From Escherichia coli (GTDB lineage Bacteria; Pseudomonadota; Gammaproteobacteria; Enterobacterales; Enterobacteriaceae), in NCBI RefSeq assembly GCF_003334385.1, contig NZ_QOWN01000131.1: DNA of 1,053 nt. One strand, 5' to 3'. Below the pieces are notes generated by a model. It was not told the DNA's origin. It made no database searches and worked only from the letters and a program-made list of their open reading frames with translations. Below are positions 1 through 327 of this stretch, one piece after another. The translations under genes and the position numbers were made by a program. Position 1 is the first letter of the stretch, and each line of letters opens with the position of its first letter.

Positions 1-102
1 AAATCGCGTCAGTACAGTAAACGCGCTGGTGGCGGTGAATACCTGTCTTTCAGCTTGCTGGCTTTTTCGACAAGAGTTATTGGTGTGTCACGTTAACCGG
101 AA

Positions 103-115: not shown

Positions 116-313
116 ATGCTGAAACAGCAGGATATGACCGAAACCGCCAGAGTGGTGTTTAATGAATTAAGTGCCACCGAACCGGCGACAGTCGGGGAGA
201 TTGCGCAGAATACTTACCTTTCACGTGAACGCTGCCAGTTAATACTGACCCAGCTTGTTATGGCGGGGCTGGCAGACTATCAGTTCGGTTGTTACAGACG
301 CCTTCAGTCCTGA
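116..313 (+). CDS. Small hypothetical protein, 65 aa, putative winged-helix DNA-binding protein
   Basis: ATG 116 with SD-like AAGGGA 7 nt upstream; stop TGA 311-313. Translation: MLKQQDMTETARVVFNELSATEPATVGEIAQNTYLSRERCQLILTQLVMAGLADYQFGCYRRLQS. The pattern (T-x-x-EIA ... hydrophobic helix LILTQLVMAGL ... aromatic/basic tail) resembles small wHTH regulators such as MarR-like or PapI/FaeA-like proteins; this is pattern-based inference, not a database hit. Frame 2 is open from the window start, so the ORF track's GTG 29 or a start outside the window cannot be excluded; ATG 134 is another in-frame alternative. Confidence 0.55.
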   Translation: MLKQQDMTETARVVFNELSATEPATVGEIAQNTYLSRERCQLILTQLVMAGLADYQFGCYRRLQS

Positions 314-327
314 AGGCTTTTTTATTT
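300..327 (+). terminator. Rho-independent (intrinsic) transcription terminator
   Basis: Perfect 7-bp stem GCCTTCA (300-306) pairing with TGAAGGC (311-317), 4-nt loop GTCC (307-310), followed by the T-tract TTTTTTATTT (318-327). The stop codon TGA (311-313) of the upstream ORF lies inside the stem. On the minus strand the hairpin is not followed by a U-tract, so it is unidirectional. Confidence 0.7.

Follow-up and report, generated by a model that had tools for sequence, protein, structure and literature searches.

The late terminator tR' of phage lambda is a hairpin with a U-tract ahead of the lysis and morphogenesis genes, and the first to be met beyond the late promoter pR'; it ends the non-coding 6S RNA and is one of the late terminators read through under the action of the antitermination protein Q. 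In lambda the pR'-tR' leader RNA is 194 nt long, and AACGAT is the sigma-70-dependent pause element. Shiga toxin (Stx) phages of the Stx1 and Stx2a types follow the same logic, since in lysogens their constitutive transcript from pR' ends early, and upon induction it is antiterminated, as described by Sy, Lan and Tree in their 2020 work on tR' and the RNA StxS of phage Sp5 for a pR' of this type (PMC7547250). We analysed a stretch of 1,053 nucleotides of Escherichia coli DNA (contig NZ_QOWN01000131.1 of assembly GCF_003334385.1; its whole length is called the window hereafter), in which a hairpin with a U-tract at positions 300-327 overlaps the stop codon of a small gene and precedes a DNA methyltransferase gene, in the same slot between Q and the tRNA/stx genes as the tR'/StxS of those phages. 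The locus resembles lambda in its Q homologue, in the -10 sequence of pR' (TAAATT), in the AACGATGGG pause element upstream and in the hairpin-plus-U-tract architecture ahead of lysis genes. It differs in that the element at 300-327 is the second one after pR' and overlaps the stop codon of a real gene, and there is no sequence homology between it and lambda tR'. We consider it probable, although not strongly so, that this element serves the late operon of a lambdoid prophage as a back-up stop signal and is overridden by Q; gene order was taken from sequence and annotation, and the working of the operon from lambda and Stx-phage biology.

The hairpin is a perfect 7-bp stem with a 4-nt loop at positions 300-317 of the + strand (GCCTTCA-GTCC-TGAAGGC), with 4 G-C pairs. 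Its 5' arm (300-306) lies within the coding sequence, its loop occupies 307-310, and its 3' arm (311-317) begins with the TGA stop codon (311-313) of the open reading frame (ORF) at 116-313; directly 3' of the stem, TTTTTTATTT at 318-327 forms a T6-A-T3 tract, U6AU3 in RNA. The segment 295-330 folds with -10.5 kcal/mol (RNAfold; z = -2.98), a value equalled by 2 of 200 dinucleotide shuffles; the stem-loop alone accounts for -9.1 kcal/mol and is kept intact in the fold of 290-470. On a d'Aubenton-Carafa-type scale, which combines hairpin energy with the T-tract, the site scores 36; of 3000 positions drawn at random from related loci, 0.33% score above 35. A consensus scan lists the site as well, a result that is not significant alone, with 3 sites against 1.4 +/- 1.1 expected. 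The U-tract is absent on the reverse complement, so the terminator signal is specific to the + strand. The features by which intrinsic terminators are recognised, a G+C-rich stem of about 5-12 bp with a short loop, an adjoining 3' U-tract and conserved pairing, are all present, and the element is predicted to be a true Rho-independent terminator, moderately strong and of an ordinary, known kind. The earlier note on this DNA had read a terminator over the stop codon here and suggested the free-energy calculation; what it saw in the sequence is confirmed at the positions it gave.

Conservation of the pairing was examined sequence by sequence, because RNAalifold on MAFFT alignments missed the hairpin when gaps fell in its variable loop; an alignment-free search and a gap-free alignment of 18 nt took its place. 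Of 86 distinct relatives, 79 had a stem of at least 5 bp covering the stop codon, compared with 29% of random positions, and 60 had a terminator score above 0, compared with 2.1%. Compensatory changes extend across Escherichia, Kluyvera, Klebsiella, Citrobacter, Enterobacter, Buttiauxella and Erwinia. In the 37 distinct versions of these 18 nt, the pair 304:313 is U-A in 10, C-G in 26 and unpaired in none; the pair 303:314 is U-A, U.G or C-G, and 300:317 is G-C, G.U or A-U. These versions were picked for possessing a hairpin, which inflates the percentage paired, and only their covariation counts are informative. The stems found in relatives include GCCTTCA/TGAAGGC, GCCTCCA/TGGGGGC, GCCCCCA/TGGGGGC, GCCTCC/GGAGGC, ACCTCCA/TGGAGGT and GCCTCCCT/AGGGGGGC, and in close relatives the loop varies freely (GTCC, GCCC, GTCA, CGCAGT) with the stem unchanged. 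The 5' arm encodes a conserved C-terminal Arg-Leu-Gln, and the non-coding 3' arm tracks its changes; in every case the stop codon falls within the loop or opens the 3' arm.

A prophage of E. coli EC2 contains the window with 100% identity, and matches occur in 2206 of 5426 complete E. coli genomes, in up to 8 places per genome. In EC2 the locus runs from replication and nin-like genes to the gene of a 273-amino-acid antitermination protein, the ORF of 65 amino acids, the DNA methyltransferase, tRNA-Ile and tRNA-Arg, and beyond these to a TolA-like gene in the stx slot, a nanS-p-type esterase, holin, lysozyme, terminase and capsid genes; from the antiterminator through the capsid gene everything is on the + strand, except one small YlcI/YnfO-family gene. 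From this gene order, the window is predicted to be the leader of a late operon, that of an E. coli prophage of lambdoid, Stx-phage-like type, and phages of the Stx2a, Stx2d and Stx2e types, phiP27 among them, share the module. The antiterminator is homologous to lambda Q (E 4e-41; 32% identity, with an insertion), its gene ends 111 bp before the window start, and nin-like genes (DUF1627, QueH, hokD, DUF968, RusA) lie upstream of it. Antitermination, which the earlier note had offered as one option on the model of nin regions, fits this context, but the system is that of Q and pR', downstream of Q, and not that of nin and N; a nin-region terminator (tR2-tR4, N-dependent, in the O/P-Q interval) was excluded because the window lies downstream of Q.

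Directly after the Q stop codon we found TTGATT-16 nt-TAAATT-TGCCCT-AACGATGGG, which aligns through the -10 and the pause element with lambda pR' (TTGACT-17-TAAATT-TGACTC-AACGATGGG). A terminator composed of CCCGCCGCCTGGCGGG and T6, with 6 G-C pairs and a score of 49, occupies window -28 to -7, about 44 nt beyond the presumed pR' start, and is taken as tR'. The transcript between the two is predicted to be about 65 nt long, with two hairpins and a U6 tail (L001 11929-11996, window -71 to -4); it is found in the same position as the lambda 6S RNA and the Hfq-binding small RNA (sRNA) StxS, and is possibly a regulatory sRNA. The hairpin at 300-327 thus stands downstream of Q and of a pR' with its pause element, on the strand of the lysis genes, and is by position the predicted second terminator, at about +372 to +399 from the presumed start and about 300 nt past tR'. 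It is not the first terminator after pR', as tR' proper would be, since a stronger one is found upstream. One could still suppose that 300-327 is the functional tR' and ends constitutive pR' transcripts as a 6S/StxS-like RNA of about 395 nt containing the small ORF, and a distant tR' would not be unusual, the Sp5 leader RNA being 258 nt long (PMC7547250). We hold this to be quite improbable, however, because the terminator with 6 G-C pairs, T6 and a score of 49 would be met already at about +44 to +65, because an equivalent of it is present in nearly every type of Q/pR' module examined, and because the small ORF is a real, selected gene and not a chance ORF in a leader RNA.

Read as a back-up stop signal, the element would work as follows. 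In the lysogen, pR' would fire constitutively and most transcripts would end at tR' after about 65 nt; the polymerases leaking past tR' would transcribe the small gene and then stop at 318-327, keeping the methyltransferase, the tRNAs and the lysis genes silent. Upon induction, Q would load on the polymerase paused at pR', and the enzyme so modified would pass both terminators. As the small gene and the methyltransferase are both behind tR', Q antitermination should carry RNA polymerase through them, and read-through of 300-327 itself should follow from the general property of lambda-type Q. A common prophage module would then have two serial terminators between a constitutive late promoter and its tRNA, toxin and lysis genes, which bears on how tightly the late genes, including stx in some relatives, stay silent in lysogens.

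Translation of the small gene adds a further element to this configuration. With coding sequence in its 5' arm and the stop codon in its 3' arm, the hairpin should be kept from forming by a trailing ribosome. Using an engineered reporter, Li et al. (2016; PMC4824070) found that the Rho-independent terminator tR2 was almost fully repressed in vivo when placed a few base pairs after a translated gene, and that its efficiency rose with distance from the stop codon, an effect that they put down to ribosome-polymerase coupling. Here, too, a Rho-independent terminator lies within a few bases of a stop codon, although the overlap is natural and conserved across genera. The distance between terminator and stop codon is in this case negative, and by analogy a ribosome that terminates at 311-313 should keep the stem from pairing. 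A ribosome that completes the small ORF just behind the polymerase would then block the hairpin, and termination would occur mainly on untranslated or uncoupled transcripts. The earlier note had expected transcription largely to end at this site; that would be true at most for polymerase that is neither modified by Q nor closely trailed by a ribosome, since on translated transcripts less termination is expected from a hairpin that contains the stop codon (PMC4824070). No antiterminator helix competing with the terminator stem was found in the window, either by reading it, which shows the 3' arm itself as the sole complement of GCCTTCA, or in minimum-free-energy folds, which leave the terminator hairpin intact. 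A trp-type ribosome-mediated attenuator was rejected on this ground, and any ribosome effect at the terminator would be direct occlusion at the stop codon rather than an alternative helix.

Several points weigh against the view of 300-327 as a back-up terminator. The stem is short (7 bp, 4 G-C pairs, -9 to -10.5 kcal/mol), such that its efficiency may be modest, and on translated mRNA the shielding by ribosomes at the stop codon could leave it almost without effect. The pR' start near L001 11929 (window -71) is a placement by similarity to lambda alone, and termination at 318-327, its efficiency and the read-through by Q there are all inferred. A further point is the behaviour of the tail. The U-tract is strong in the Escherichia clade, with 6-7 T in 8 and a median terminator score of 27.6, whereas it is degenerate in the clade of Klebsiella, Citrobacter, Kluyvera, Buttiauxella and Erwinia, with tails such as TTTCTGCTG, TTCCTGCTG, TTATGCTG and even CCCCGCTG and a median score of 4.7. 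The small protein of that clade is 60-85% identical, its U-tract is poor and some of its scores are negative, yet the hairpin is kept, and termination may therefore not be the conserved function. Across the family it appears from these comparisons that the hairpin is kept more strictly than its terminator character, while a predicted canonical terminator is found in this window.

Such a pattern, the chief evidence for this alternative, could mean that the hairpin is mainly an element acting at the RNA level, as a 3'-end stabiliser or processing boundary of the small-gene mRNA or as an insulator for the folding of the leader RNA described below, with the U-tract of Escherichia as a secondary acquisition. 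Its covariation and persistence with tails such as TTCCTGCTG, TTATGCTG and CCCCGCTG speak for this, as does its position: in most of 49 distinct contexts a GC-rich hairpin, either the stop-codon hairpin or one of tR' type, ends 8-15 nt before position 1 of the leader. We regard this explanation as unlikely, though less so than the other alternatives, since the U-tract of the clade to which the window belongs is perfect and conserved, many of the so-called weak tails still have 4-5 U in 8, and terminator character is itself enriched, with scores above 0 in 28 of the 49 pre-leader hairpins against 3.3% of random 78-nt windows. A role at the RNA level in addition to termination is another matter, and the hairpin may have one, as it persists 8-15 nt before the leader even where the U-tract has decayed. 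This recurring position, together with the linkage of the small gene to the methyltransferase in most leader-bearing loci, argues that the hairpin or terminator, the leader and the methyltransferase form a functional unit.

We then considered whether the methyltransferase could be transcribed from a promoter of its own. If 300-327 were a true operon boundary, such a promoter would have to lie in the spacer at 328-463, as the earlier note had proposed, and a gap of 150 nt is indeed long for an intra-operon spacer and highly conserved. Nevertheless, the sigma-70 scan of the window found no promoter consensus, including in 328-463, and alignments A3 and A4 of this region contain no conserved TAnnnT hexamer. 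The spacer is instead a structured RNA leader, whose helices, compensatory, tolerant of G.U and specific to the + strand, explain its conservation, and in N15-like relatives the leader comes directly after a pR'-tR' cassette. An independent promoter in this place is therefore very improbable, the least likely of the explanations that we weighed. Two candidate promoters picked by hand, TTGCTG-17-TATTGG (55-83) and TTGCGC-16-TATCAG (418-445), were rejected for being without the critical -7 T or -11 A and for their unconserved hexamers.

The leader occupies about 135 nt at 332-463 of the + strand, as delimited with alignments A3 and A4 and covariance model R1. The 150-nt spacer is conserved above the flanking genes, with a column identity of about 80% where the methyltransferase proteins are 57-78% identical. 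The methyltransferase of an N15-like Enterobacter phage has 55% identity to the one in this locus; a broad set of loci, with methyltransferases 59-95% identical to that phage enzyme, shares the leader with extensive compensatory change. Its helices are P1a (335-340/376-381), P1b (341-352/360-371), the alternative P2 (376-382/392-398), P3 (413-419/425-431), P4 (406-409 and 411-412 with 434-435 and 437-440), P5 (388-393/458-463) and P6 (395-398/452-455). Of 99 sources searched with model R1, 81 have a single copy, which lies on the + strand and immediately precedes the methyltransferase. In the R1 alignment, which was fitted to the model, 80.4% of cells are paired against 31-40% when the partners are slid by 1-3 columns; the MAFFT alignment agrees in direction, with 78.9% against 27-43%. 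Changes on both sides occur in 27 of the 41 R1 pairs, and the covariation score is 0.283, compared with 0.06-0.10 after sliding. The arms of P1b alone take the forms GGCTGGTGGGTG/CACTCACCAGCC, GCTACAGTATG/CATACTGTAGC, GGCGGTATGGTG/CACCGGTACCGCC and GCGGGA/TCCCGC across the broad set. From the G.U pairs it follows that the structure belongs to the + strand RNA.

Other causes for the conservation of this region were sought and rejected. The 5' arm of P1b, invariant in the Escherichia-like clade, contains a Chi site (GCTGGTGG, 342-349), which might have been its cause; such an account, however, works only for that clade, and in the broad set the arm is entirely different yet complementary, such that the pairing is the conserved property. 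A leader peptide or upstream ORF in 335-471 does not hold either, because in most genera the window's ORF of 33 codons meets a stop after 7, and an ORF beginning ATG/GTG-AGC-CTA is disrupted by stops or 1-nt indels in loci L087 and L089. The consensus scan also listed a minus-strand terminator within the leader, at 436-454, composed of AGCCTGTCTCTGATAGGCT and CATTCTGCTT; its stem is unconserved outside the Escherichia clade, and it is probably not a terminator.

Four segments of the leader, S1 AUGGGC (335-340), S2 GCUCAU (376-381), S3 ACAAGC (393-398) and S4 GCUU (452-455), are mutually complementary, and in a second clade S2 is GCCCGU, S3 ACGGGC and S4 GCCC. The column of base 378 in S2 covaries with that of base 396 in S3 (U-A in 19, C-G in 17, unpaired in none; alignment A4), and the same S3 column covaries with S4 (A-U in 17, G-C in 8). 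In energy evaluations the two pairing schemes are about 1 kcal/mol apart in the second clade, and in the window S1:S2 with S3:S4 is favoured by about 14 kcal/mol. Together, P5 and P6 pair the 12 nt before the AUG at 464, of which the last six (TGATCC) pair with 388-393; no Shine-Dalgarno sequence is visible in 450-463. The layout recalls translational attenuators of the ermC type, in which four segments also pair either as 1:2 and 3:4 or as 2:3, with 3:4 covering the start region, but differs from them in having no conserved leader peptide (frame and length vary) and no Shine-Dalgarno to hide.

By its layout, the leader looks like a switch, the structure being supported by the data and the mechanism proposed from it. 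We offer, as a tentative proposal that falls somewhat on the doubtful side, that the terminator hairpin and the leader are one conserved regulatory unit of a widespread phage gene pair, the small helix-turn-helix (HTH) protein and the DNA methyltransferase, and that the leader is an undescribed cis-regulatory switch with two mutually exclusive pairings, one of which would sequester the bases before the start codon and so gate translation of the methyltransferase, in response to S-adenosylmethionine or S-adenosylhomocysteine, to the small HTH protein or to translation reaching the stop codon as candidate signals. Were the leader such a switch, phage DNA methylation would have a new point of post-transcriptional control. 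Rfam 15, searched permissively (E <= 1) with the window and six divergent loci, gave no match over the terminator or the leader. Literature searches returned no relevant paper on the sequence strings of terminator or leader and no specific methyltransferase-associated RNA motif, and a comparative paper on pR' (PMC6266700) has no description of the 300-327 terminator, the small ORF or the methylase. Conserved, covarying and in no RNA-family database searched, the leader at 332-463 is a candidate for a new cis-regulatory RNA and is more novel than the ordinary terminator that precedes it.

The small gene (116-313, + strand) encodes a protein of 65 amino acids that is HTH- or winged-helix-like, belongs to phrog_331 (PHROG match 1.8e-37) and carries the NCBI name 'TrmB family'. 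Its homologues at E<=1e-3 number 341 and come from Escherichia, Salmonella, Klebsiella, Citrobacter and Buttiauxella. Against nine diverged genera, substitutions at codon positions 1:2:3 are 83:60:290, with 215 synonymous and 113 non-synonymous codon changes, a pattern by which the ORF is judged a real gene under purifying selection. Its Pfam matches are weak (TrmB/MarR/HTH), and the AlphaFold2 model (pLDDT 74.5) is a small helical bundle whose fold search gave weak matches, all of them HTH or winged-helix domains with E >= 0.36; a sequence-profile search of the PDB gave nothing significant. The gene exists in two subtypes, 29% identical (E 2e-4), and is linked to the methyltransferase in most leader-bearing loci. 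The earlier note had pictured it as regulated apart from the methyltransferase; lying itself behind the stronger tR', it is not separately expressed in any obvious way, nor independent of the late switch. Ahead of it, a 5' untranslated block with the ribosome-binding region (CTTGCTGG...AGAGTTATTGGTGTGTCAC...AAGGGAAAAAGAC; 55-115, + strand) is kept across genera. The part at 55-92, of the form CTTGCTGG-N-(C/A)(C/A)AGAGTTAT(T/C)(G/T)GT(G/A)TGTCAC, is conserved across genera, and the stretch from tR' to this block varies or is absent. The 55-92 block does not fit a sigma-70 promoter, and the scan found no consensus there.

The methyltransferase gene starts at 464 on the + strand and runs past the end of the window at 1053; in the full locus it encodes 352 amino acids. 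Its DPPY motif is of the beta-class N6-adenine/N4 type and it matches DNA methyltransferases in PHROG, and its matches to adenine-specific methyltransferases of NCBIfam are all below the cut-offs. Just before the gene, positions 459-462 read GATC, as in 40 of 42 close relatives, but the wider family does not keep this motif.

The borders of homology give an indication of how the module is exchanged. In about 90 related contigs, homology has one of three starting points: 1 kb upstream (where Q is the same), window -30 to -25, which is precisely where the tR' hairpin lies, or +15. Of 173 distinct upstream contexts, 67 representatives were aligned; the Q/pR' part differs in all of them, some having the lambda-type AACGATGGG and others the TTAAGAGTGGT type, and a GC-rich hairpin with a T7 run lies about 130 nt before the small ORF in nearly all. 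From the varied Q/pR' part and the shared downstream part, it appears that terminator, small gene, hairpin, leader and methyltransferase behave as one cassette, joined by recombination to various Q/pR' units. The cassette is replaced in 933W and Sp5-type phages, which have a different Q/pR'/tR' module: the small gene, the 300-327 terminator and the leader are lost, and only the last 37 methyltransferase codons are left (933W 20966-21076; many Stx2a phages). The remnant sits upstream of the tRNA/stx2 genes. It appears from this remnant that a 933W-type module overwrote the small gene, the terminator, the leader and most of the methyltransferase.

A different arrangement is found in N15-like phages (L296 1007-1506, Enterobacter phage MStein-2023a, Ravinvirus), where a distant homologue of the small HTH gene is followed by a pR'-like promoter, tR', the leader and the methyltransferase. 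The gene pair is conserved there, but the late promoter sits between both genes, and tR' occupies the slot held here by the stop-codon hairpin. Several viral contigs (L080, L055, L039, L018 and L010) are without the methyltransferase, and their homology stops at position 353, in the P1b loop, 4 nt past Chi; other contigs break at 385 or have an internal methyltransferase deletion from 443. One contig titled Chryseobacterium sp. (L089, CACSKA010000005.1) has the whole cassette of enterobacterial type, with a small ORF of 77% protein identity, and is probably a mislabelled or contaminated assembly.

Chi occurs three times within 520 bp on the strand of late transcription (window 25-32 and 342-349, and L001 11823-11830), and the 25-kb locus has 7 copies on the + strand and 3 on the - strand. 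The copy at 25-32 is kept in 68 of 91 distinct Escherichia-clade contexts and that at 342-349 in 86 of 93. In this orientation the sites would face RecBCD entering from the cos side.

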